Virus record (IMG/VR): IMGVR_UViG_3300042482_000702
Location: 11,355-75,354 of that record
Source of the DNA: a virus
DNA length: 64,000 nt
Strand: one strand, 5' to 3'
Position 1 is the first letter of the stretch, and the number at the start of each line of letters is the position of its first letter. Made by a program: the position numbers and the translations under genes. Of the stretch, positions 6,181 to 64,000 are shown one piece after another. The notes beneath the pieces are model-generated. The model saw nothing but the letters and a program-made list of their open reading frames with translations, was not told the DNA's origin and ran no database searches.

Positions 6181-6522
6181 TTATTCCTCTTCGTCGTCCT
6201 CATCATCATCATCATCATCATCATCATCGTCTTCATCTACCTCAACAAAATATATTTCTTTTTCTTCGTCATAAATTTTGTCTTTGGTTTCGTACATATT
6301 AGTCAAATCATCATACAATGAGTCGCTATACGATTCCTCGTCCTCTTCCTCGATTGGGTTCATATCCCAAAAATTTTCTTCAATATATTTTTTCATTTCG
6401 TTTTCGGTCATACCATCCAATTCTGGATAGTCCGATACGGTAATGGTTACAGGTGCGTGCCAAACGGCAATACAATGGGATTCTAATAATCCGAAACTAA
6501 GTTTTTTTGGTGCTTCTGACAT
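6181..6522 (-). CDS. highly acidic protein with poly-Asp tail (113 aa)
   Basis: C-terminal D10-rich run encoded by (GAT)n trinucleotide repeat at 6205-6232; paralog of next gene (YPELDGMTE.E motif). Confidence 0.55.
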   Translation of the reverse strand: MSEAPKKLSFGLLESHCIAVWHAPVTITVSDYPELDGMTENEMKKYIEENFWDMNPIEEEDEESYSDSLYDDLTNMYETKDKIYDEEKEIYFVEVDEDDDDDDDDDDEDDEEE

Positions 6523-6524
6523 AA

Positions 6525-6812
6525 TTAAAACATTTTCTCAACTGCGTTAATTTCTTGCGACTCATTCGTAATTTTATCTCTACGAATATCCATATCGTTA
6601 AGTTCTTCAGCTAATGAATCATAACCTTCGTCATCGTTGGTTGGTTTCATTTCCCAAGCGTTTGATTCAACATAATCAATAGCTTCTTGTGTGGTCATAC
6701 CTTCCAATTCAGGATAATTTTCAAGGTTTAATTCTACCGGTTCTCTGGTAATTGATGTTTCATAATATTCTCTAGCGAATACTGCAATTGTTTTTGGTGT
6801 TTGTTCTGACAT
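6525..6812 (-). CDS. acidic paralog of 6181..6522 (95 aa)
   Basis: Shared N-terminal region (..YPELEGMTTQEAIDYVESNAWEM..). Confidence 0.55.
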   Translation of the reverse strand: MSEQTPKTIAVFAREYYETSITREPVELNLENYPELEGMTTQEAIDYVESNAWEMKPTNDDEGYDSLAEELNDMDIRRDKITNESQEINAVEKMF

Positions 6813-6847
6813 AGTGTTTAAGTTTTTTTATAAAGATACAAATAAAA

Positions 6848-6869
6848 AATCCCACTATCAAGTGGGATG
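6848..6869 (-). terminator. rho-independent terminator
   Basis: ATCCCACT-atca-AGTGGGAT perfect 8-bp stem preceded by A-run (T-run on minus strand). Confidence 0.5.
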
Positions 6870-6874
6870 TGTAA

Positions 6875-7270: not shown

Positions 7271-7290
7271 AAACAATAATACAAATAAAA

Positions 7291-7316
7291 AACCCCACAA
7301 TCAAGTGGGGGTTAAA
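7291..7316 (-). terminator. rho-independent terminator
   Basis: AACCCCAC-aatcaa-GTGGGGGTT. Confidence 0.5.
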
Positions 7317-7596: not shown

Positions 7597-7956
7597 TTAT
7601 TCATTAACAAAGTTATTTATTATATAATCTAACCCAATACCCAAATGTTTAATACCAAGAATGTTTAAAAAATCAGATTCGTCAATTTTACGATTTTGTT
7701 TTTCACTTAAAACTAATACACCATATTCTTTTTGAGGTTGGGCATAATAATTATTACCATTAATATGAAACAAATACATTGACCCATAATTGTTAAGTAA
7801 CCATCTAAACTCTTCTCTACCATCAGAGAACAAGTATTGACCTTTAGGTCCTAATTCAACCCAATTTGTAATCACCTCAATATGGTCGGATAAATTATAT
7901 CCCACCTCCTTGGTAATTAAATCTTTTATTTTATTTTCCGTGATTATAAATTTCAT
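7597..7956 (-). CDS. MKFIITENK-family protein (~119 aa)
   Basis: Leader MKFIITENKIKDLITKEV (start at internal ATG; track ORF extends over upstream gene). Confidence 0.55.
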   Translation of the reverse strand: MKFIITENKIKDLITKEVGYNLSDHIEVITNWVELGPKGQYLFSDGREEFRWLLNNYGSMYLFHINGNNYYAQPQKEYGVLVLSEKQNRKIDESDFLNILGIKHLGIGLDYIINNFVNE

Positions 7957-7969
7957 ATCAATAAATATA

Positions 7970-8212
7970 CTACGATTTAGTTTCCAAACCATATTTCTCG
8001 CAGAACCATTTGTTGAAAAGATAATTATAACTCCCATCACCAAAAAACATATTTAAGTCCCGAATAACAATAGATAACGCACCTGCCCTTTTCAAATATT
8101 TATAATATACACAAACACCATTGACGCAAATTGTATCATCGGTTTCATATATTTCCCTATCACCATAGGTTGATTCCAAATATTTAATAACACACAACTC
8201 CGTCTTGGTCAT
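7970..8212 (-). CDS. hypothetical Cys-containing protein (80 aa)
   Basis: ORF; promoter element TACCTTTG (8222-8229 minus) upstream. Confidence 0.45.
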   Translation of the reverse strand: MTKTELCVIKYLESTYGDREIYETDDTICVNGVCVYYKYLKRAGALSIVIRDLNMFFGDGSYNYLFNKWFCEKYGLETKS

Positions 8213-8239
8213 ATATTTTTTTTACAAAGGTACAACAAT

Positions 8240-8881
8240 TTATTCAAATAAAAAAGGGGGTGGGGGGATTTGGAACCGACCGGAGGGAGTTCGGGTTATC
8301 AAACTATCATACACATTACAAATGTCTTGCTCATTAAGACCCAAGTATTTTTTTGTAATACACGTACTTAAATGACCAAATAATTCCTTCAATAAAATTA
8401 AACTTTCATTTGAATAATTATTCACTTCTAATACCCTTCTACCAAATGTTTTCCTAAAAGTATGTGTTGAAACATTCCCATCTAATTTTATTCTATACTT
8501 TTTTACCAATTCTTTAAGTTTTACATTCACATAAGATTTATCAATTGATTTAGTTCCGTACTTATTTATGAATATAAGTTGATTTAAATTAGTTATGTTG
8601 GATTTTAAAACAATCCTGTCAACAATCTCTTTTAAATCTTTATTTACTTTAACATTTCTTTGTTTTTTTGATTTTACCTCTCTGAATGTAAAAGTTTCAT
8701 TACTTAATAAATCTGAATAAGTAAGTTTTAATAAATCTGAAATCCTTAAACCTGTAAAAACCCCAATTGAAACTAAAAGACAGAATTTATAATGTTCATC
8801 TTTTTCTAATTTTGTAATTAATGATATAAAATCATTCCACTCAAAATATGCTGTAGTTATATTTTGTCCTCTGTTACTCAT
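8240..8881 (-). CDS. tyrosine recombinase / phage integrase family (213 aa, catalytic domain only)
   Basis: GLRISDLLKL (Arg I), HTFRKTFGRRV (HxxR), LLKELFGHLSTCITKKYLGL (His/Tyr) motif order typical of tyrosine recombinases. Confidence 0.7.
   Translation of the reverse strand: MSNRGQNITTAYFEWNDFISLITKLEKDEHYKFCLLVSIGVFTGLRISDLLKLTYSDLLSNETFTFREVKSKKQRNVKVNKDLKEIVDRIVLKSNITNLNQLIFINKYGTKSIDKSYVNVKLKELVKKYRIKLDGNVSTHTFRKTFGRRVLEVNNYSNESLILLKELFGHLSTCITKKYLGLNEQDICNVYDSLITRTPSGRFQIPPPPFLFE
8255..8296. repeat. att-like direct repeat copy A (part 1)
   Basis: Matches copy B with 2 mismatches; encodes integrase C-terminal PPPPFLFE. Confidence 0.6.
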
Positions 8882-8887
8882 AATATG

Positions 8888-9253
8888 TTATTTACTCATG
8901 TCGTATTTGAACTCTATATTGAATTCACATTGTTGTTCACATATCAAGTATCGTTCCACCATATCAACATAGTTTTTTGGGACATCAACGTATGAAAAGT
9001 ATTTTACCTTACACCTTCTATTAAGAATTATTTCATTATATTCATCATCATACTTACTTGGCATACCAACAAATAAATGGTTCATTAATCTTCCTCGAAT
9101 AGATGATACGGATTTCCCAATATACAATATTTCTTTATCCTCACCATATAGAAAATATACCCCTATTCTTTTATTATTAGGTAAATTATTCATACTCACT
9201 TCTAATATACCTGAAAAATTATCTATTGTATATTTTATTTCTTTACCTATCAT
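8888..9253 (-). CDS. GIY-YIG family endonuclease (121 aa)
   Basis: GVYFLYGEDKEILYIGKSVSSIRGRLMNH = GIY-(10)-YIG-...-R...H module. Confidence 0.6.
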   Translation of the reverse strand: MIGKEIKYTIDNFSGILEVSMNNLPNNKRIGVYFLYGEDKEILYIGKSVSSIRGRLMNHLFVGMPSKYDDEYNEIILNRRCKVKYFSYVDVPKNYVDMVERYLICEQQCEFNIEFKYDMSK

Positions 9254-9987
9254 TATTTTTTAATCTTTTCAAATAATAAAGCTTCCTTAACAATATCTTC
9301 ATTACCGGCAATAATTTTTTTAAGAACATCCCAATTATTGACTTTATTACTTGGTTCAACCCAATCCCCATTTTTAATCAACATCTTCTTAACTTTTAAT
9401 ATTGTATTTGTTGATTTATTAGTCACAACATTAATTAATCTACAGGTATACCCGGAATTAAGAAAATGAATAATATCTTCATGTTTTAATAAAAACATTG
9501 ATTCCAATTCTATTGAACCTTTTTTTCTACCAACAATACCACCATTAAGTAATTTATTTTGATATCCTCTTGCTAATCTTTTTTGAAGTTTACCAAGTTC
9601 TCTATTAGCGTATTCAATCTCAGTCATAAAAACAGGAATTGCATTTACATTTAATTTGTTATTAATTATGGTTTCCATTTCAATATCAACACAATATATT
9701 GAGACACCTAATTCATACAGTTCAGAAATTAATTCTTTACAATTGAAAGTATCTCTACTTAATCTTGATAATTCACTAACTACAATTTTATTAACTTTAT
9801 TTTCCCGAACATATTCTAACATAGAATCAAATCCTAAACGAGATTTTTTTAATCCACTATCAATATCTTCAAAATAAGACACAACAGACCATTTCTTTTT
9901 ATTACAAAAATCTAAAACATTAGACCTTTGAGACTTCATTTTTTGTTTGCTTGTAGAAATCCTACAGTAAATTACGACTTTATCCAT
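9253..9987 (-). CDS. serine recombinase (resolvase/invertase family, 244 aa)
   Basis: N-terminal VVIYCRISTSKQK catalytic-serine motif, resolvase core; start/stop overlap with neighbour. Confidence 0.8.
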   Translation of the reverse strand: MDKVVIYCRISTSKQKMKSQRSNVLDFCNKKKWSVVSYFEDIDSGLKKSRLGFDSMLEYVRENKVNKIVVSELSRLSRDTFNCKELISELYELGVSIYCVDIEMETIINNKLNVNAIPVFMTEIEYANRELGKLQKRLARGYQNKLLNGGIVGRKKGSIELESMFLLKHEDIIHFLNSGYTCRLINVVTNKSTNTILKVKKMLIKNGDWVEPSNKVNNWDVLKKIIAGNEDIVKEALLFEKIKK

Positions 9988-10005
9988 TTTTTATTTATTT
10001 ATTAT

Positions 10006-11712
10006 TTATTTATTTTTTAAATTAACCATATAAGAACATACCTCATCAAACCAACCATTTCTTTTTGCACCTTTGTAAGCACCTGAGTATAATTTTTGAA
10101 ATTCTGTTTTTGACCTACATTTTAAGGCAATCATTTCAACATTTTCTTTAATATCCCAATGCCCTATACTTTGTTTAGTTAATACCATATGCGAACATAC
10201 TTCATCCAACCACCCGTTTTTTAATGCCGAATTGTATGCCCCCCCGCAATGTTTGGAAAACTCAGACCTATTTTTATACTTCAATGATTCCTTTTTAATA
10301 TCCTCAATATTACCCCATTTTGAATTAAACTTTGGATATATGGAAAACACCTCATCCGACCATCCATTACTTCTAACAATCAAATAAGCTCCGGGACAAG
10401 ATTTTTTAAATTCTGTCTTTGACTTATATTTTTTCGCCTCATCTTTAATATCCTCAATGGTTTTCCATTTCCCATATAATATTTCCATATGAGAACATAC
10501 TTCATCTAACCAACCATTTCTTTTTGCGGATTTATACGCTGAAACATATAATTTATTAAATTCTGATTTTGTGTTACATTTTTTTGCAACCGTTTCAACA
10601 TTTGATTTAATATCCCAATATCCCATATCACCTTGTATTAGGTTTTCTTTAGGAAATAGAATATCCAACCAACCATTTCTATAAGCACCTTCGGATGCCG
10701 CTCTACATCCCCTCGCAAATTCTTTTCGGATTCTATATTTCACAGCTTCTTTTTGGACATTTTCAAAAATATCCCACTGACCACTCCTTAACACCATATG
10801 AGAACAAACCTCTTCTAACCAACCATTTTTGCGAGCAATTGATGAAGCCCCACCTGAATATCTATGGAAATCACTCCTATTGTCAAAAGTTAGCGCAATT
10901 TCTTTTATAGATTCTAAATCCCACATTCTTGAATAACTTCCTAAAGAACCGGATTTGGCTATGTTTACGGGATTGTAACCTAATTCAATGTAATTATCAA
11001 CCCATTTTTGTTCATATTCACCAGCAATATTAACATCAACAGGGGTTTCAGTAATTAATCTAAATATTGGAGAACCATATTCTTTTATGGTCTTAAATAC
11101 AATACAACTTTCAGTATTAAGATGTTCATTTTTCCTTCTTTTATAGTTTTCGGTTAAACCCACATAAACAAGTTTTACTTCTTCCCATATGAACGCGTAA
11201 ATATATCTAGGGGAGTCATTTATGTTTGGAGTCATATGTGAACAAACTTCATCATACCAACCTTTTCTACGAGCAATTTCAGCAACATATTTATGTTTAC
11301 CCTGACAAAAATCACTTCTATTATCATACATTAGAGCAATATCTTTAATCGATTCAAAATCCCACTTACTTTCACCTTTTTTAATCCCACATTTAATAAT
11401 CATATGTGAACAGACCTCATCAATCCAACCTTTTCTTACCGCTTGGAGATACGCTCCAGTATTTTGTTCATTAAATTCTGTTCGTGTTTCATATTTTAAC
11501 GCCACCTCCCAAACAGATTCTTTATTCCAAGAATTATTTCTTTTTTTAATAAGAGGTTGAGTTAATTCATCATACCAACCATTTTTTAGTAAAGAGTTAA
11601 GAATAGAAGTGCCTTGTAATTCATTAAGGTATGTCATATTAGATATACCCACCTTACATCTTTCGTATGTCCAATAACCGTAGGGTTTTTTTTCAGGTTT
11701 ATTTTCTATCAT
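10006..11712 (-). CDS. GIY-YIG domain protein flanked by ~11 tandem NGW.DEVCSHM repeats (568 aa)
   Basis: Central YIYAFIWEEVKLVYVGLTENYKRRKNEHL GIY-YIG core; repeated ~45-aa units ending (K/R)(N/K)GW(L/Y/F)DEVCSHM on both sides. Confidence 0.55.
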   Translation of the reverse strand: MIENKPEKKPYGYWTYERCKVGISNMTYLNELQGTSILNSLLKNGWYDELTQPLIKKRNNSWNKESVWEVALKYETRTEFNEQNTGAYLQAVRKGWIDEVCSHMIIKCGIKKGESKWDFESIKDIALMYDNRSDFCQGKHKYVAEIARRKGWYDEVCSHMTPNINDSPRYIYAFIWEEVKLVYVGLTENYKRRKNEHLNTESCIVFKTIKEYGSPIFRLITETPVDVNIAGEYEQKWVDNYIELGYNPVNIAKSGSLGSYSRMWDLESIKEIALTFDNRSDFHRYSGGASSIARKNGWLEEVCSHMVLRSGQWDIFENVQKEAVKYRIRKEFARGCRAASEGAYRNGWLDILFPKENLIQGDMGYWDIKSNVETVAKKCNTKSEFNKLYVSAYKSAKRNGWLDEVCSHMEILYGKWKTIEDIKDEAKKYKSKTEFKKSCPGAYLIVRSNGWSDEVFSIYPKFNSKWGNIEDIKKESLKYKNRSEFSKHCGGAYNSALKNGWLDEVCSHMVLTKQSIGHWDIKENVEMIALKCRSKTEFQKLYSGAYKGAKRNGWFDEVCSYMVNLKNK

Positions 11713-11724
11713 AATAATTTTTTA

Positions 11725-11732
11725 CAAAGATA
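11725..11732 (-). promoter_or_regulatory. TATCTTTG -7 promoter element for gene starting at 11712
   Basis: Exact motif 13 nt upstream of ATG. Confidence 0.4.
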
Positions 11733-11771
11733 TAATAAAGATTCCATACATCCAAATTTATTTTCAAAAAA

Positions 11772-11855
11772 AAGGGGGCGGGGGGATTTGGAACCGACCG
11801 GAGGGAGTCCGGGTGGTATGTCATCCCCCAATCCTATCTAAAGAAAATGGGGTTG
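11772..11855. repeat. att-like repeat copy B (part 1 + part 2)
   Basis: Part 1 matches 8255-8296; part 2 (CCCCAATCCTATCTAAAGAAAATGGGG) matches 12300-12328. Confidence 0.6.
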
Positions 11856-11887
11856 TATAATTAAATTATTATTTATATCTTTGTAAA

Positions 11888-12316
11888 ATGAAAAATAGTA
11901 TTACAATTTTATTAGATAGATGTTTTGAGTGTGGAACAATAGGTGATGTTGACTTACATCATGTTGTTCCCAAAAGTAAAGGGGGGACACAAATGATTCC
12001 ACTATGTTTATCCTGTCATTCAAAAGTTCACGGAGAACATATGTTAGAAATTAGAAAACTTGCGATGGAGGCAAAAAAAATAAAAATGAATGATTATAAA
12101 GAAAATGGAATACCCCATAATTTTGGTAGAAAAGTTGGGTCAAAAGAGAATAGAGAAACCTTTATGAATAAACAAACAACTAAAGACATTATTTATTTAT
12201 TATCATTCGAAGATAACACTATAAGAGAAATCGCCAAAATGGTTAAATGTTCAACAAGAACTGTTCAAAAAGTTAAAAAAATTATTAATGAATTAAATAT
12301 CCCCAATCCTATCTAA
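11888..12316 (+). CDS. HNH endonuclease (142 aa) with C-terminal HTH-like region
   Basis: CFECGTIGDVDLHHVVPKSKGG...CLSCHSKVHG = HNH motif with Zn-binding Cys pairs; TATCTTTG 5 nt before ATG (leaderless). Confidence 0.7.
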   Translation: MKNSITILLDRCFECGTIGDVDLHHVVPKSKGGTQMIPLCLSCHSKVHGEHMLEIRKLAMEAKKIKMNDYKENGIPHNFGRKVGSKENRETFMNKQTTKDIIYLLSFEDNTIREIAKMVKCSTRTVQKVKKIINELNIPNPI

Positions 12317-12328
12317 AGAAAACGGGGG
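12300..12328. repeat. att-like repeat copy C (part 2), at HNH gene 3-prime end
   Basis: CCCCAATCCTATCTAAAGAAAACGGGGG; the two part-2 copies bracket the HNH gene. Confidence 0.55.
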
Positions 12329-12797
12329 TGGAATCAATAATATCCATAAGACCCTCAACCCTTATACCAACCTTATCATAAACCATATAGTTAATCTCAT
12401 CATTATTTCTTGTATATAAAGTAACATCCCTATGTTCCTTCTCCGTTAATAAGATAGTTGAAGAATACTTACGAAGTAATTCAATGAATCCTTCAACACT
12501 CATATCAGGATTCTCACTCAACTTATCAAAGATAATCTCCATACATAATGACCTCTGAATATAATGGTCATCAACTCCCTTACCCCCACTCTGAATCAAA
12601 CCATCCGATTTTAATCCCGTCTTGAAATACTTAATGTTAGTTAAATCCCATATTGGGTTACGGTTCCTTGAACAGAACTCCTTCAATAATACCTTATCGT
12701 TCTTAACCTCGTTGAATCGTACAACCAAACACTTAAAGTCCTTTAAGGTTTCCTCAATCTTCCGCAATTTTAATGATGATATTTTCATAGACCACAA
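12309..12797 (-). CDS. hypothetical protein (162 aa)
   Basis: ORF; palindromic operator-like site upstream. Confidence 0.5.
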   Translation of the reverse strand: MWSMKISSLKLRKIEETLKDFKCLVVRFNEVKNDKVLLKEFCSRNRNPIWDLTNIKYFKTGLKSDGLIQSGGKGVDDHYIQRSLCMEIIFDKLSENPDMSVEGFIELLRKYSSTILLTEKEHRDVTLYTRNNDEINYMVYDKVGIRVEGLMDIIDSTPVFFR

Positions 12798-12853: not shown

Positions 12854-12927
12854 TATAAACCATTATTTCCGGATAGACATTTTAACCCCCTCCTTAACCG
12901 GAAAATAACACCACTCCAAAATGGGGG

Positions 12928-13422
12928 TTATTCTTTACTACGAACTTTACGAGGTTTCTTAACACATCCACAACTATATTCTTTACCGTCATATAAGTGT
13001 TTACCCGTTACAACCGTATTTTTACCACATTCACATTCACATAAAAATGTCCTAAAATACCAATTAGCGTTAACATCATCAGCATTAATAGGGTCAATTT
13101 GTTTTTTAATAGTAAATAAACCAAACTTATCCCCCACCTTCATCTTATTAACCTCATTAACCCATAACCTTCTTTCCTTACCATCTACAACCCACATTTG
13201 TTTCATCATTTCAGGAACAATACCTTTACTACCGTTTTGGTCATAAATTACAACTCCCAAATTCTTTATATTATTAGCGTCTATATATTTTTTAGCAAAC
13301 ACCTCATTAATGAAAGTTTTCTCTCTTTTAGACCTTTCACAAATTAAAGGTTCTGAATACCAAGTAATCGAACACTTACCATCCTTTTGTTTTTTAATTT
13401 CAATACCTTTGTATTTTCCCAT
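12928..13422 (-). CDS. hypothetical protein with C-terminal Cys cluster (164 aa)
   Basis: ORF; CECECGKN...YSCGC putative Zn ribbon. Confidence 0.5.
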   Translation of the reverse strand: MGKYKGIEIKKQKDGKCSITWYSEPLICERSKREKTFINEVFAKKYIDANNIKNLGVVIYDQNGSKGIVPEMMKQMWVVDGKERRLWVNEVNKMKVGDKFGLFTIKKQIDPINADDVNANWYFRTFLCECECGKNTVVTGKHLYDGKEYSCGCVKKPRKVRSKE

Positions 13423-15858: not shown

Positions 15859-16212
15859 ATGAAATTTATTATAACAGAGAATAAAAGGAATCAGATTGTC
15901 ACTGATTGGTTGGATAAGAACTATGGTAATTTAAAACCTGAACAACATAAAATTGCTTCAGTTACGTCTTATGTGGATGATAACGGTGATGAGGTATTCT
16001 CATATGATTGGTATGGATTGGTTACCATACATAACTCTGATTTACAAACAATGTTATTTACCGTATTTAATTTGGATAAGGATAGTTTAAATAGTATCTT
16101 TATACCTTGGATGATGGAGAGATATTATATAAAAGTTAATGATGTTCGGTATACCACTTGGCATTGTAATAAGTGTGGTGAATTTCATCCTACTAAATAT
16201 CATATTGATTAA
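15859..16212 (+). CDS. MKFIITENK-family protein (117 aa) with C-terminal CxxC
   Basis: Leader MKFIITENKRNQIVTDWLDK; family C-terminal block LNSIFIPWMMERYYIKV. Confidence 0.55.
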   Translation: MKFIITENKRNQIVTDWLDKNYGNLKPEQHKIASVTSYVDDNGDEVFSYDWYGLVTIHNSDLQTMLFTVFNLDKDSLNSIFIPWMMERYYIKVNDVRYTTWHCNKCGEFHPTKYHID

Positions 16213-23266: not shown

Positions 23267-23638
23267 TTACCAATTATGTATATCCCCAATACCCATATTC
23301 TCCCAATCTAATGAACCCGGATTTGAAAAATATACCTCATCAGGTTCAATATTCACCCGACTTTTAAACCATTGGGAGATTAATTGGGTTTTCTCATTTT
23401 CATCAAATGAGAAGATATCTAAAATATTCTCAAAACTATTTGTAACATATAAATGGTCTCTCTTTTCAGACCATCTCATAATAATATCACCATCATTGTC
23501 TTTGAACACCACTTGTTGATTACTATATACAGAATCTTTATTTGAATCAAAATCTTCCCGACTTAAATCATTAAAGATATCATCTAATAACTTATACGCT
23601 AAATCTTTTCTTTTATTCTCTGTTATTAATATTTTCAT
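23267..23638 (-). CDS. MKILITENK-family protein (123 aa)
   Basis: Leader + family C-terminus QLISQWFKSRVNIEP. Confidence 0.55.
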   Translation of the reverse strand: MKILITENKRKDLAYKLLDDIFNDLSREDFDSNKDSVYSNQQVVFKDNDGDIIMRWSEKRDHLYVTNSFENILDIFSFDENEKTQLISQWFKSRVNIEPDEVYFSNPGSLDWENMGIGDIHNW

Positions 23639-54256: not shown

Positions 54257-55687
54257 TTATTGGATACAAACCACATCTCGATAAGTTGCGATGTCAGCAG
54301 CACCATTAAAAATACCAGCAGCGTTTGCACCAGTTGTTGGTGATAATACAGTAATATTAGTTACAGTATTAACATTATTAACAGATATTATAGGACCCAT
54401 AAATAAAATATTTCCATCAGATAACGCAGAAATTTTATTTGAGGGGAACCATTCATTTGTTGGTTCGTTTCTATATGATGCAAATGTAGTCCAAGTTCCG
54501 TCATTTAAACCAGTAGTTAATACTCTAGCAATACCAGTTTTTGTACCCACCAGAGTTCCCACCTGTGTGAATTTACCCGCAAGAATAACTTTTCCTCCTT
54601 GACCAGGTTGGTCTAACATAGAAGTAATTGGCCCATTGCACTGTGGATACCAACTAGTGTCTAAAACACCAGCAGCACTAAGTCTAACAGGATTTAATCC
54701 TGTAGAATTAAGACTACCTACCCCAGTAAATGAAGTAGTCCCTGTGTAACCAATCATAATTCTATTATTATTGTCTAACTGCATACAGGTTATACTACCT
54801 AAACCATCATTAGTTCTCGGGAAGACTGCGACATTAGAAGATGCAAAACTAGTATCGATTACACCATTTGCAGTAAGCTTTAGGATTCCACCATATGGGT
54901 TAAGAAAATTTCCAGCAACCAATATGCTCTGTTGGTCATTAGGTTGGACTAGAACAATCTTAACTGTCCCATTTACGGAATAAAATCCACTAGAGGCAAA
55001 TGAAGTATCGGTACTTCCATTAACATTTAATCTAGCAACGTATCCAGCACCAGTAGTAGTAGTGGTTGTTACGGTATTGACATACCCACCTAAAATAAGT
55101 TTACCATCTGATTGAGTATCAACTGATAGAATTGTATAAGGGAATGAAGAGGCACCAGAAAAAGTATAATCTTTACTACCATCAGGATTTAACCGAATAA
55201 TTCTCTGTATTGTTACCCCATCGTATGACGTTACAGTACCTACAACAACTATTTTACCATTAGATTGTTTAACAATTGACATTGGACCCGGAACTCCTTC
55301 AGCAGTCGGAAAAACAGACCCAAAATTAAACCCACTCCCAACATTAAAAGTTCTATCAAGACTTAAATTATTCGTTAATTTTACTATACCTACTGAAGAT
55401 GACCCAGAATAATTACTGAAAGTACCAATAATAATAGGACCTTGTGAAAACACTAAACTATAATCTTGGGATGGTGATGTGCTACAAGTACCTAAAGGCA
55501 CCACATACCCTCTAACTATCGAAGATGTAGTAGTATATGTGTATCCTGTCAATAATTGACCTTTAGTTATATTTGATGCTAATAGGATTGGTGTGGTACT
55601 AGTACCAGTATATCCAAATAAGTTAAATGCTGATACGGCGTATGAAGACCCCGAATATTCCGCTTGTAATGTAAATCTAATATCCAT
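54257..55687 (-). CDS. Ser/Thr/Gly/Val-rich beta-rich protein, probable virion fibre/adhesin component (476 aa)
   Basis: Composition and position next to fibre genes. Confidence 0.45.
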   Translation of the reverse strand: MDIRFTLQAEYSGSSYAVSAFNLFGYTGTSTTPILLASNITKGQLLTGYTYTTTSSIVRGYVVPLGTCSTSPSQDYSLVFSQGPIIIGTFSNYSGSSSVGIVKLTNNLSLDRTFNVGSGFNFGSVFPTAEGVPGPMSIVKQSNGKIVVVGTVTSYDGVTIQRIIRLNPDGSKDYTFSGASSFPYTILSVDTQSDGKLILGGYVNTVTTTTTTGAGYVARLNVNGSTDTSFASSGFYSVNGTVKIVLVQPNDQQSILVAGNFLNPYGGILKLTANGVIDTSFASSNVAVFPRTNDGLGSITCMQLDNNNRIMIGYTGTTSFTGVGSLNSTGLNPVRLSAAGVLDTSWYPQCNGPITSMLDQPGQGGKVILAGKFTQVGTLVGTKTGIARVLTTGLNDGTWTTFASYRNEPTNEWFPSNKISALSDGNILFMGPIISVNNVNTVTNITVLSPTTGANAAGIFNGAADIATYRDVVCIQ

Positions 55688-61700: not shown

Positions 61701-64000
61701 GTAGTGTCGCACAGTTTTTATCGCCTCCACCGATTGTTGTATAACTATTAGATGCGATATTACCTCGACCACCACCGATTGTTGCAAAATCTCCAGAAGC
61801 AGTATTACCATAACCATACCACCCTCCATTATTAAAACACTTACCACCACCACCAATTGTTGAACTAACACCGGAAGCTTTGTTATGACCACCACCACCA
61901 ATTGTTGAGGTACTACCGGAAGCAATGTTATAACCACCTCCACCTATTGTTGACCGATAAGTAGAAGCAGTATTATTTTCACCACCACCAATTGTTGTCC
62001 AATAGGCTGAAGCTTTATTACAAACACCCCCACCAACAGTAGAGTTTAAACCTCCGGATTTATTACAAGTTCCACCACCAATTGTTGAACCATAACCATA
62101 ACTATTATTACACTTACCACCACCTATTGTTGCTCGAGGATTTGAAGCTGAATTATTTTCACCACCTCCAATTGTTGTATAGTAACCTGTTGCGCAGTTC
62201 CTAAAACCACCACCAATGGTTGACAATACACCAGAATTAAAACAAATCGTAGTTCCAGTTAATAGACCTGTTGAATAAGTAAATGTTCCTCCGGAAGTAT
62301 TATGCCCAATACCTCCACCAATTGTCACACCTAAAGATTTATTTTCATTAGGTAATGATTGAATTACATTTCTATGTCCTCCACCAATAAATGACATTCT
62401 TGCGTTTGTTGTATTACGATAACCACCAACAACTGTTGAATAAGTCCCACTACTAATATTACATTTCCCTCCTAAAGACGCTGAATAATTCCCTATTGAA
62501 GTATTCAAAACACCACATCTAACAGACGAACAAGTACCACCACCTAATACAATGACTGGAGGTTCAGGACTTGTTCCGCTAGTCCCCGCAGAACCAGTTG
62601 CTCCACTAGTCCCTGACGAACCATTTACTCCACTAGTTCCTGACGAACCATTTACTCCACTAGTTCCTGATGTTCCTCTAGTTCCTGACGAACCTGACGA
62701 ACCTGTCGCTCCACTAGTTCCTGACGAACCTGTCGCTCCACTAGTTCCTGACGAACCATTTACTCCACTAGTTCCTGACGAACCTGTTGCCCCACTAGTT
62801 CCTGACGAACCATTTACTCCACTAGTTCCTGACGAACCATTTACTCCACTAGTTCCTGACGAACCTGTCGCTCCACTAGTTCCTGATGTTCCTGTTGCCC
62901 CACTAGTTCCTGATGTTCCTCTAGTTCCTGACGAACCTGACGAACCATTTGCTCCACTAGTCCCTGACGAACCATTTACTCCACTAGTTCCTGACGAACC
63001 TGTTGCTCCACTAGTTCCTGATGTTCCTCTAGTTCCTGACGAACCTGACGAACCTGTCGCTCCACTAGTTCCTGACGAACCTGTCGCTCCACTAGTTCCT
63101 GACGAACCATTTACTCCACTAGTTCCTGACGAACCTGTTGCCCCACTAGTTCCTGACGAACCTGTTGCCCCACTAGTTCCTGACGAACCATTTACTCCAC
63201 TAGTTCCTGACGAACCTGTCGCTCCACTAGTTCCTGACGAACCATTCGCTCCCGATGTTCCTGATGTTCCTCTATTTCCTGACGAACCTGACGAACCTGT
63301 TGCACCACTAGTTCCTGACGAACCTGTTGCACCACTAGTTCCTGACGAACCATTTGCTCCCGATGTTCCTGACGAACCATTTGCTCCCGATGTTCCTGAC
63401 GCTCCACTAGTTCCCGATGAACCTGTTGCTCCCGATGTTCCTGACGCTCCACTAGTTCCCGATGAACCTGTTGCTCCCGATGTTCCTGACGAACCATTTG
63501 CTCCCGATGTTCCTGACGCTCCACTAGTTCCCGATGAACCTGTTGCTCCCGATGTTCCTGATGAACCTGTTGCTCCCGATGTTCCTGACTCTCCACTAGT
63601 TCCCGATGTTCCTGACTCTCCACTAGTTCCCGATGAACCTGTTGCACCACTAGTTCCTGATGAACCTGTTGTTCCACTAGTTCCTGACGCTCCACTAGTT
63701 CCTGACGAACCTGTTGTTCCACTAGTTCCTGACGCTCCACTAGTTCCTGACGAACCATTTGCTCCCGATGTTCCCGATGAACCTGTTGCTCCCGATGTTC
63801 CTGACGAACCATTTGCTCCCGATGTTCCTGACGCTCCACTAGTTCCCGATGAACCTGTTGCTCCACTAGTTCCTGACGAACCTGTTGCTCCCGATGTTCC
63901 TGACGCTCCACTAGTTCCTGATGAACCTGTTGCACCACTAGTTCCTGATGTTCCGGATGAACCACTAACACCTGAAGTTCCACTAGAACCATTTGCTCCT
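58723..64000 (-). CDS. giant fibre protein: N-terminal collagen-like Gly-X-Y domain fused to a >1200-aa IGGG beta-helix repeat array (partial; N-terminus beyond window)
   Basis: Gly-X-Y collagen-like frame (GTSGVNGSSGTSGAT...) stays open from 64000 down to the annotated start at 62508, which is a TTG (Leu) codon in that same frame; ~40 x S-T-I-G-G-G-x-x-N-x-A repeats in 58723-62508. Confidence 0.7.
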   Translation of the reverse strand, partial: GANGSSGTSGVSGSSGTSGTSGATGSSGTSGASGTSGATGSSGTSGATGSSGTSGASGTSGANGSSGTSGATGSSGTSGANGSSGTSGASGTSGTTGSSGTSGASGTSGTTGSSGTSGATGSSGTSGESGTSGTSGESGTSGATGSSGTSGATGSSGTSGASGTSGANGSSGTSGATGSSGTSGASGTSGATGSSGTSGASGTSGANGSSGTSGANGSSGTSGATGSSGTSGATGSSGSSGNRGTSGTSGANGSSGTSGATGSSGTSGVNGSSGTSGATGSSGTSGATGSSGTSGVNGSSGTSGATGSSGTSGATGSSGSSGTRGTSGTSGATGSSGTSGVNGSSGTSGANGSSGSSGTRGTSGTSGATGTSGTSGATGSSGTSGVNGSSGTSGVNGSSGTSGATGSSGTSGVNGSSGTSGATGSSGTSGATGSSGSSGTRGTSGTSGVNGSSGTSGVNGSSGTSGATGSAGTSGTSPEPPVIVLGGGTCSSVRCGVLNTSIGNYSASLGGKCNISSGTYSTVVGGYRNTTNARMSFIGGGHRNVIQSLPNENKSLGVTIGGGIGHNTSGGTFTYSTGLLTGTTICFNSGVLSTIGGGFRNCATGYYTTIGGGENNSASNPRATIGGGKCNNSYGYGSTIGGGTCNKSGGLNSTVGGGVCNKASAYWTTIGGGENNTASTYRSTIGGGGYNIASGSTSTIGGGGHNKASGVSSTIGGGGKCFNNGGWYGYGNTASGDFATIGGGRGNIASNSYTTIGGGDKNCATLRYSTVGGGQCNTASNYRSTIGGGYRNQASGSLSTVGGGNCNIASGTLSFVGGGGRTYSGYKTNIAFGYASVVVGGQGNIASGTTSNILGGYLNQIKCKNSTILGGQGNTIQGCSSTIGGGVLNVVGQQTIFIGNPYKTNYATLYFYGDVSPYFTIGNNILSYNPNYGKTIQSDVDSIVLSNTGYPSYYDVTLVNLQNNVGTTFGELYFINRSTITDGGKNITIAGGFKNYAKGNCSFIGGGNNNKANGEGSFIGGGNSNCTTQSNSTVGGGVLNKAFGDTSTIGGGCCNTVMNVIGSTISGGKSNCVGNRYSSIGGGCYNKISSCYSSIGGGCSNCIVSTCSTIGGGRLNRACGNSSTIGGGWLNCTCGTLSFIGGGSCNRAFGGDSTIGGGFYNRVLSGGTFSSIVGGRVNLISTTMSTIGGGRCNIITGTTSQCGEDAVIAGGLSNKTFRTRAAILGGCGNYACGYGSGIVSGNNNKSATNMTFVGGGHVNVVCGYQGGIAGGVLNMVGNSPKIQSSIVIGNCSLRFIGNLTSCFTTNDLLLTFDNNACSRNVVVTASTYTSGSYIGYTDINVTGATGSVQVFGIGNEPLVRNLTKSLGGGNSSFIGGGIGNTANACGSVIGGGICNVTCGCHSTIGGGSGNIASGNYSTIGGGGGFKVTGNTSSPGYFPMMGSVGNIATGFTSTVSGGRLNKSFGYSSTIGGGQHNIARGAGSFIGGGYNEYYSSTYPNINNIASGVNSTIGGGWSNCAYGVRSFIGGGFRNSVSDSCTTIAGGSINCGKKGSFIGGGDQNCAVGYCSFVGAGNGNWACASLSSILGGTYNRIPSSFNNSNIIGSNITANRSNTTFVNNLNIEKNKIFTVPVNNGGAGEVVYFGVGTSLTAGSVYYYSTGGTWTLADATTVVTSLGLLGMALGTTIAGGMLLRGYAKFSTTSFTSATLGSILYVSTTAGEFSSISPPVSGNNVRIIGYCTDATNDIIYFCPDNSWVEVL

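Follow-up and report, generated by a model that had tools for sequence, protein, structure and literature searches.

The window analyzed here is a 64,000-nucleotide stretch of viral DNA (IMG/VR record IMGVR_UViG_3300042482_000702, positions 11,355 to 75,354), in which two pairs of direct repeats, termed R1 and R2, lie among genes for a tyrosine recombinase, a serine recombinase and three putative nucleases (Table 1). A sequence-only reading made earlier had taken this interval for a self-contained mobile element with its own integrase. Our analysis points elsewhere: R1 is likely a family-wide junction element at which gene modules are repeatedly swapped, and the interval a mosaic. With the exception of the HNH endonuclease gene, all genes here are on the minus strand. 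Along transcription, the order is gene 162 (12797-12309), R2 copy b, the HNH gene on the opposite strand, R2 copy a, a spacer of 11 nucleotides (nt), R1 copy A and a promoter-like motif. There follow the genes for a 568-residue protein, the serine recombinase, a 121-residue GIY-YIG protein and the tyrosine recombinase, the last of which runs into the second R1 copy (copy B), and then a -7 box and the gene for an 80-residue protein. The five gene assignments of the earlier reading held in comparisons with Pfam and PHROG, the two GIY-YIG matches being near threshold and backed by family-level evidence.

The four genes between the R1 copies abut or overlap and are served by one -33/-7 motif, with no second full promoter motif between the two copies, suggesting that they form one operon and are probably co-transcribed from the promoter beside R1. 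A sigma-70 promoter and terminator scan carried no information for a genome of the Bacteroidetes type. The G+C content of the window (GC, about 30%), the promoter type and a match to a host gene (see below) point to a Flavobacterium phage, and proteins identical to those of the window occur on contigs of up to 322 kb. We conclude that the interval lies in the hyperplastic accessory region of an uncultivated freshwater giant Flavobacterium phage.

A repeat search of the window returned the R1 pair as 60 nt of 90% identity (8237-8296 and 11755-11814). Both copies have an identical 27-nt core, GGGGATTTGGAACCGACCGGAGGGAGT, with no third site in the window when up to three mismatches were allowed (shuffle expectation 0, n=100), and a profile hidden Markov model built from 113 R1 copies matched the window only at 8247-8300 and 11765-11818 (E ~1e-15). 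The likeness extends over the downstream promoter and start codon (8209-8238 and 11709-11738, 77%), with an 18-nt indel in between. The R2 copies, which flank the HNH open reading frame (ORF), are identical at 28 of 30 positions; no further copy was found in the window at up to three mismatches, and the chance expectation was again 0. Both repeat pairs thus exist much as had been described, chance being ruled out by the shuffles, and R2 does bracket the HNH gene. The second R1 copy had also been said to continue into R2; in fact the 11-nt spacer lies between them.

Table 1. Features of the interval (window coordinates)
Feature	Position	Strand	Remarks
R1 copy A	11755-11818	-	family-wide intergenic element; ancestral copy, after gene 162 and R2
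R1 copy B	8237-8299	-	upstream of the promoter of the 80-residue protein gene; the tyrosine recombinase ORF runs through it with its final 18 codons
R2 copy a	11826-11855	.	hairpin-forming end sequence of gene 162; adjoins R1, as in an HNH-free relative
R2 copy b	12301-12330	.	gene 162 (12309-12797, -) and the HNH gene both reach into it with their 3' ends
HNH cassette	11856-12300	+	own promoter-like motif (-7 box 11876-11883); ORF 11888-12316 (HNH142)
Bacteroidetes-type promoter-like motif, TTTG-N20-TATCTTTG	11725-11756	-	12 nt before the ATG of the 568-residue protein gene
568-residue repeat-rich protein, central GIY-YIG	10006-11712	-	Pfam 22.1 bits, cut-off 22.6; phrog_20046
Serine recombinase, small, resolvase/invertase type	9253-9987	-	Resolvase E 2e-24; YCRISTSKQ catalytic motif; PHROG match
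121-residue free-standing GIY-YIG nuclease gene	8888-9253	-	Pfam GIY-YIG 21.8 bits, cut-off 22.6
Tyrosine recombinase ORF, 213 residues	8240-8881	-	Phage_integrase PF00589, E 6e-17
-7 box of promoter-like motif, TACCTTTG	8225-8232	-	for the 80-residue protein gene (7970-8212)

Relatives were obtained via the genes flanking the interval, and their loci or contigs are given L-numbers. Within a few kb, R1 occurs once in L001 and L004, twice in L009 and three times in L003, and clusters of two or three copies per 3-5 kb were found in L003, L022 and L053. A pattern scan recovered R1 from 14 IMG/VR stretches, on contigs of 37-308 kb, and from 68 metagenome stretches, mostly from lakes. R1 was absent from 185,579 bacterial genomes (one per species) and from 50,697 records of isolated phages, among which the region likewise had no nucleotide match. 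Over all loci, 121 distinct copies were counted. They are almost always oriented with the neighboring genes: a same-strand ORF starts within 150 nt downstream of 101 copies and a same-strand ORF ends nearby upstream of 96, the upstream end lying at 8-70 nt and the downstream start at 27-70 nt. On the transcribed strand, the consensus reads ACCCGRACTCCCTYCGGTCG, a variable hexamer (n6) and AATCCCCCCGCCCCC, followed by T6-8; many copies also have a T-run upstream, about 20 nt before in the consensus, which marks a separate terminator. Promoter-like motifs follow 88 of 113 copies, ATATTTAT..ATG at 15-20 nt in 57 and TAnnTTTG at 11-42 nt in 31. Modules in L028, L069 and L009 share 80-85% identity with the stretch of R1 and promoter before the 568-residue protein gene. 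The sequence-only reading had allowed that it would fail if its repeat were a common regulatory motif. At the level of the phage family, with its 121 copies, R1 is indeed a common element; within this window it is not.

Several identities of R1 were considered and set aside. An origin in a tRNA, or in an attachment (att) site within one, does not fit with the single tRNA found by ARAGORN, which is far away, or with the absence of R1 from bacterial genomes. No Rfam family matched at the gathering score, and local E-value matches were at chance level. As for a terminator or another structured RNA, folding z-scores were around zero in six of the eight copies, and the candidate stem did not covary: its positions R and Y assort independently, A with C being the commonest combination. 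Only the copies preceded by a G-run fold well. Lastly, R1 is not a required component of the TATATTTAT..ATG promoter, which stands before six genes of the window that have no R1.

To locate the joints between modules, we compared the 300 nt on either side of 99 R1 copies, pairwise. The flank was similar upstream only in 110 pairs, downstream only in 73 and on both sides in just 3. In six of the eight pairs that were examined, similarity of 88-99% ended at +38 to +40 or began at -8 to -4, positions that are counted from the first base of the R1 core and represent the edges of the element. Pairs with a shared upstream flank had fewer differences than background in the 5' block of R1; the 3' block was linked to the downstream flank only among the closest pairs, and the hexamer tracked neither flank. 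This linkage between blocks and flanks indicates that crossovers fall within R1. On a larger scale, the same conserved anchors enclose wholly different gene sets in the window, in L004 and in L003. What does hold of the earlier reading is that recombination has joined unrelated DNA at R1, as both the flank-sharing counts and the breakpoints at the edges indicate. The R2-R1 arrangement at the middle repeat is ancestral, being unbroken in L004.

We propose that R1, a non-coding element of about 50 nt, would separate modules by lying after the end of one gene, often with its terminator, and 15-60 nt before the next promoter-like motif and start codon. With near-identical copies in unrelated contexts, recombination inside R1 could join any upstream to any downstream module, most likely as ordinary homologous recombination during co-infection. 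The two copies in the window would represent two such junctions around a four-gene block of mixed origin, assembled from a repeat-rich GIY-YIG gene that other phages carry singly between R1 copies, a serine recombinase gene that is an R1-promoter-gene unit in another phage, a small putative GIY-YIG homing endonuclease gene, and a tyrosine recombinase gene that stems from an integrative island of the host, lacks two codons at its end and is fused to R1. The HNH gene would be a separate homing insertion into the spacer between terminator and R1, with duplication of the 30-nt terminator sequence R2 in this lineage. The proposal builds on direct observations, namely the anatomy of the interval, the distribution of R1, the breakpoints at it, the origins of the genes and the empty site of the HNH gene.

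A second kind of breakpoint bears on the mechanism. Similarity between the window and L001 or L003 resumes exactly at a gene-start module (window 7964/7965) that encodes the N-terminus MKFIITE and looks like a second crossover hot spot. That breakpoints also fall at this module favors general homologous exchange over a dedicated enzyme. The module, TATATTTAT-N(1-8)-ATG, was found in the window at the ATGs at 7956(-), 14202(-), 15859(+), 17232(-), 20393(-) and 30225(-), and it precedes many unrelated small proteins in the window and in relatives. The N-terminus MKFIITE is encoded by three genes, at 7956, at 15859 and, as shown by inverted repeat I4, at 23638. Possibly, the TATATTTAT..ATG module is a promoter for leaderless or short-leader mRNAs.

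We also considered whether R1 could be the site of a dedicated, integron-like cassette exchange, in which a phage recombinase cuts and rejoins R1 and thereby moves R1-gene units. The candidate enzyme would be the serine recombinase (window, L028) or another recombinase from elsewhere in these genomes of 200-320 kb. Breakpoints within a few nt of the R1 edges are in line with such a process, but they occur at the MKFIITE module as well, as general homologous exchange predicts. Likewise, the two conserved blocks around the variable hexamer segregate with opposite flanks, and R1 is better conserved than the surrounding genes; the blocks, however, are not inverted copies of one another, and R1 shows neither dyad symmetry nor a hairpin. 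The serine recombinase gene is 91% identical at the nucleotide level in L028-L030, where it stands alone directly behind R1 and promoter, with a gene of the same HNH family coming next in the opposite orientation. A serine recombinase gene directly behind R1 in two phage lineages supports the integron-like alternative, as does the order of genes: the HNH gene comes after the serine recombinase gene in L028 and before R1 in the window, a circular permutation as if from a circle formed via R1. Against this, no other R1 locus had a homologue of either recombinase, save L028-L030 (serine recombinase only), a weak test with only about 1-20 kb inspectable per locus, and the window has no recombinase beyond the tyrosine and serine enzymes. 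On balance, we regard exchange of this kind as unlikely.

The serine recombinase appears N-terminally truncated in some assemblies, which is a gene-calling difference, the DNA being identical. Its nearest non-phage relatives (36-39% identity) are found in Bacteroidetes defense islands (L118-L121), where genes for type I restriction-modification, GmrSD, an MmeI-like enzyme and Druantia (DruA) adjoin. Together with the kin of the tyrosine recombinase in such islands (see below), this means that both phage recombinases have relatives in host defense islands, and it may be that the phage uses the two enzymes to rearrange or excise these islands. No close relative of either recombinase was found in IMG/VR by pattern search. 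Invertible segments on which the recombinases could act were also sought, and no convincing inverted repeats were seen in the window or around the host gene.

The 3' end of the tyrosine recombinase gene does overlap the repeat, as had been pointed out: the last 18 codons of the ORF (TRTPSGRFQIPPPPFLFE) are R1 sequence. This overlap had been taken as the classical signature of an att core. Among 1,795 homologues of the protein, the best (about 85% amino acid identity, 196 residues) are encoded in Flavobacterium chromosomes. The nucleotide match to the host gene, at 88%, covers only 8884-8301, beginning 3 nt ahead of the ATG and stopping two codons short of the host stop codon. DSLTF* is the end of the host protein, whereas the phage ORF reads DSLI and then continues into the 18 codons of R1. 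At other loci, which lack a recombinase gene, translations of R1 still match the recombinase tail, and the host loci with the gene have no R1. Hence, the overlap arose from a truncated host gene fused to an R1 that was already in place. On these alignments, the gene is an ORF-only copy of a Flavobacterium island gene, two codons short. Its product keeps all the catalytic residues (R, K, H-x-x-R, H/W and Y), and the motifs GLRISD, THTFR, FGH and KKYLG align with the host proteins; the N-terminal core-binding (DNA-binding) domain is absent from both the phage and the host protein. The ratio of non-synonymous to synonymous substitution rates (dN/dS) was 0.14-0.22 between phage and host and 0.00-0.02 among hosts, at dS of up to 0.26, the protein being almost invariant in the latter. 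The host 196-residue gene is always convergent with a gene for a 450-504-residue integrase at the edge of an island (L024, L025, L113-L117), and the variable cargo of these islands includes an MmeI-like enzyme and an Eco47II plus methylase restriction-modification system, among others.

These observations weigh on the idea that the 3.5-kb interval is an integrated element, the tyrosine integrase of which recombines the R1 copies as attL and attR. Direct repeats do surround a block with two intact recombinase genes, the tyrosine enzyme keeps its catalytic R, H-x-x-R, H and Y, and a dN/dS of about 0.2 relative to the host gene suggests that it is still under constraint. Yet R1 lies at more than 100 junctions that lack a tyrosine recombinase gene, and it was found neither in the host loci with the gene nor in any bacterial genome scanned. 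Homology to the host gene is confined to the ORF and truncated at the R1 junction, and the other three enclosed genes occur elsewhere as independent modules. Empty sites, which the earlier reading had proposed to look for in related phages, yielded no cassette-free copy of this phage. All places shown for the 15-17 contigs with the exact integrase or the exact 80-residue protein had the full block, and nine independent assemblies were identical across 8200-12400 bar one single-nucleotide polymorphism. No excised or empty form was seen among the 17 contigs; as assemblies show majority forms only, rare circles could escape. In these majority-form assemblies, nothing pointed to present-day excision of the block. 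In L004, gene 162 is followed by just one R1, and what comes next is other genes, not that for the 80-residue protein. We consider it very improbable that the interval is an att-bounded element, and the self-contained mobile element of the sequence-only reading is not sustained.

The enclosed nuclease genes also have lives of their own. Most homologues of the 121-residue GIY-YIG protein carry PF01541. One homologue of 80% amino acid identity lies in L069 behind R1 and promoter, ahead of the gene for a 745-residue repeat protein, and others are free-standing in unrelated phage contexts. The family profile of the 568-residue protein matches the catalytic domain of I-TevI (1mk0, E 0.012), and the gene has 6-9 repeat copies with a period of 150/159 nt. 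At the protein level, tandem modules of about 50 residues, with the motif NGW.DEVCSHM, lie on both sides of the GIY-YIG core. Homologues are found between two R1 copies alone in L003 and with a small GIY-YIG gene in L009 and L069, and they are flanked by R1 in L021 and L023 too. In KVP40-like Vibrio and Rhizobium phages the family is multi-copy (3-7 places per genome) and annotated as a GIY-YIG nuclease. The 568-residue protein is probably a free-standing homing endonuclease, as its homologies suggest. We conclude that the four enclosed genes have separate histories.

The HNH gene, oriented against its neighbors, occupies the spacer between R1 and the gene 162 terminator. Its product, HNH142, matches Pfam HNH at 21.7 bits (cut-off 21.4) and PHROG HNH families, with helix-turn-helix matches at the C-terminus. 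In L004, with flanks that are about 92% identical, the site is empty: the end of gene 162 is followed by a single R2 and R1, unbroken. Homology between the window and L028 spans 12305-11852, exactly the segment between the R2 copies. L089 has the HNH gene (85.6% amino acid identity) between R1 and the terminator of a gene 162 homologue of only 58% identity. In L100, a terminator hairpin, the HNH gene (85.6%) and R1 follow one another, with no gene 162 homologue, the upstream gene being cut by the contig end. An empty site in a close relative, together with better conservation of the HNH gene than of its neighbors in distant phages, is the usual signature of homing, and the HNH gene, a predicted endonuclease, thus has the appearance of a true free-standing homing insertion. 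Nested homing events, which had been offered as another description of the interval, therefore find support as regards the HNH gene, given its empty site in the 92% relative, and not as regards the interval as an integrase-driven element.

Endonuclease genes on the opposite strand are found just upstream of 13 of the 121 R1 copies (T5orf172-like 7, HNH142 4, HNH_3-like 2). Their recurrence beside R1 suggests that such genes land preferentially in its flank. Possibly, then, R1 is chiefly a homing target, putatively recognized by several families of free-standing endonucleases, with break repair and co-conversion moving the modules. Immediate upstream placement of the 13 genes, GIY-YIG genes immediately downstream of R1 in the window, L003, L009 and L069, and the presence of the same HNH gene in the terminator-R1 spacer in three different contexts would all agree with this. 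On the other hand, about 100 R1 copies had no nuclease gene in the flanking ORF positions examined, and R1 is intact beside the endonuclease genes, so that insertion confers no obvious immunity. As the main explanation we find this doubtful; it is compatible with R1 as a junction for homologous exchange, and both processes may act together. In L028 (9190-9260), downstream of the HNH promoter, only an R1-like 3' end remains (CACACCCCC followed by T10), which may be an R1 eroded by insertion of an endonuclease gene.

Some of our results weigh against R1 as a junction for ordinary module exchange. R1 is about 84% conserved between copies with unrelated flanks, above what homologous recombination alone requires; R1 may also have a regulatory role. 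No RNA structure signal was detected in fold z-scores, in the covariation of the two candidate pairing positions or in Rfam, and R1 occurs only twice in the 64 kb and only two or three times (exact pattern) per long relative contig, which argues against a promoter or terminator signal of general use. Ordinary homing does not account for the 30-nt duplication of R2, which was absent from the HNH sites of L089 and L100. Finally, neither a cassette-free nor a circular form of this phage was present among the 17 contigs, so that recombination between the window's own two R1 copies is conjectural. It is also conceivable, albeit improbable, that R1 is a dedicated landing pad of giant Bacteroidetes phages for recombinase- or endonuclease-driven exchange, the recombinases perhaps serving for host defense islands. 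Taking these points together, we still favor R1 as a junction element of the phage family.

In its behavior, the closest analogue of R1 would be the promoter-early stem-loop (PeSL) of T4-type phages, short promoter-terminator cassettes in hyperplastic regions (Arbiol et al., 2010, PMC2839356; Comeau et al., 2014, PMC4122927). Related phages differ at PeSLs by insertion, deletion and replacement, and mini-circles can form (PMC2839356, PMC4122927). R1 and the PeSLs alike are short, conserved and intergenic, and they cluster in hyperplastic regions with many small non-essential and endonuclease genes. In both, the ends of insertions, deletions and replacements coincide with the cassette, which has a promoter (for R1, a promoter-like motif) adjacent and a terminator before it. 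However, the sequence of R1 is unrelated and is C-rich on the transcribed strand, and the R1 core appears to be neither promoter nor stem-loop, the promoter-like motif being a variable 15-60 nt downstream and any terminator hairpin separate and upstream. In addition, the hosts of R1 are giant phages of Bacteroidetes, not T4-type phages, and a promoter or terminator activity of R1, like mini-circles formed at it, would be putative.

R1 can also be set beside integron cassettes, in which one or a few genes are each bounded by the same recombination-associated sequence, in one orientation and with highly variable content, much as here. Unlike attC, R1 has no imperfect inverted repeats or folded structure; there is no IntI-like integrase or attI platform, and each R1 unit has its own promoter-like motif. 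With att-bounded elements, such as lambda-type prophages and integrative islands, the interval shares direct repeats of about 60 nt around a block and a recombinase 3' end that overlaps one of them. It differs from them in that R1 is not specific to the block, that the recombinase is 3'-truncated and without an N-terminal DNA-binding domain, and that no empty site, excised form or host att site was found here. Large lytic phages have free-standing homing endonuclease genes, such as the seg and mob genes of T4. Similarly, the genes for HNH142, the 121-residue GIY-YIG protein and the 568-residue GIY-YIG protein and the T5orf172-like genes are small and intergenic, with their own promoter, and vary in presence between close relatives, and the HNH gene is better conserved than its neighbors across distant genomes. 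In contrast to seg and mob, the insertions here cluster beside one non-coding element and not in or beside conserved protein genes, and the HNH insertion carries a 30-nt target duplication.

Accessory-gene turnover in freshwater giant phages of Bacteroidetes is poorly documented, the phages being known mostly from metagenomes. In the published accounts of freshwater Bacteroidetes or Flavobacterium giant phages that we compared, the words intergenic and homing do not occur; promoter is absent from one of them, and integrase and recombinase are absent from the other. R1 would offer a concrete, sequence-defined junction element with more than 100 natural recombinants, and would carry the "linker sequence" or PeSL model of modular evolution over to phages of an unrelated group. 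It could mark and delimit hypervariable regions in these phages, and it could be used to study whether module exchange is driven by homing endonucleases. The tyrosine recombinase would be a clean example of a phage copying a single recombinase gene from a host island, ORF only. It also calls for caution, as an integrase beside direct repeats in a phage contig need not denote an integrated element.

The window is rich in accessory genes, and those elsewhere in it encode ClpP, an N6/N4 DNA methylase, a non-specific endonuclease, an Acb1-like anti-CBASS protein, a poly(A) polymerase/CCA-adding head domain, NUDIX, ferritin/rubrerythrin and nitroreductase proteins, and PHROG gave no match for nine of the ten largest proteins. 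Two neighboring paralogous genes (6181-6812) encode small, very acidic proteins of 113 and 95 residues, one of which has a long Asp/Glu tail from a GAT/GAA-rich simple repeat. A second repeated intergenic sequence, AAAAAAYCCCACnATCAAGTGGGG, is present at 6836-6871, 7279-7314 and 12903-12930; its copies are terminator-type hairpins on the minus strand, after small genes. A tRNA-Leu(TAA) at 54644-54732 (-) lies within a 476-residue ORF (54257-55687, -), an unusual arrangement unless the ORF is no real gene. At the end of the window (62000-64000), GC climbs from about 30% to 43-52%.

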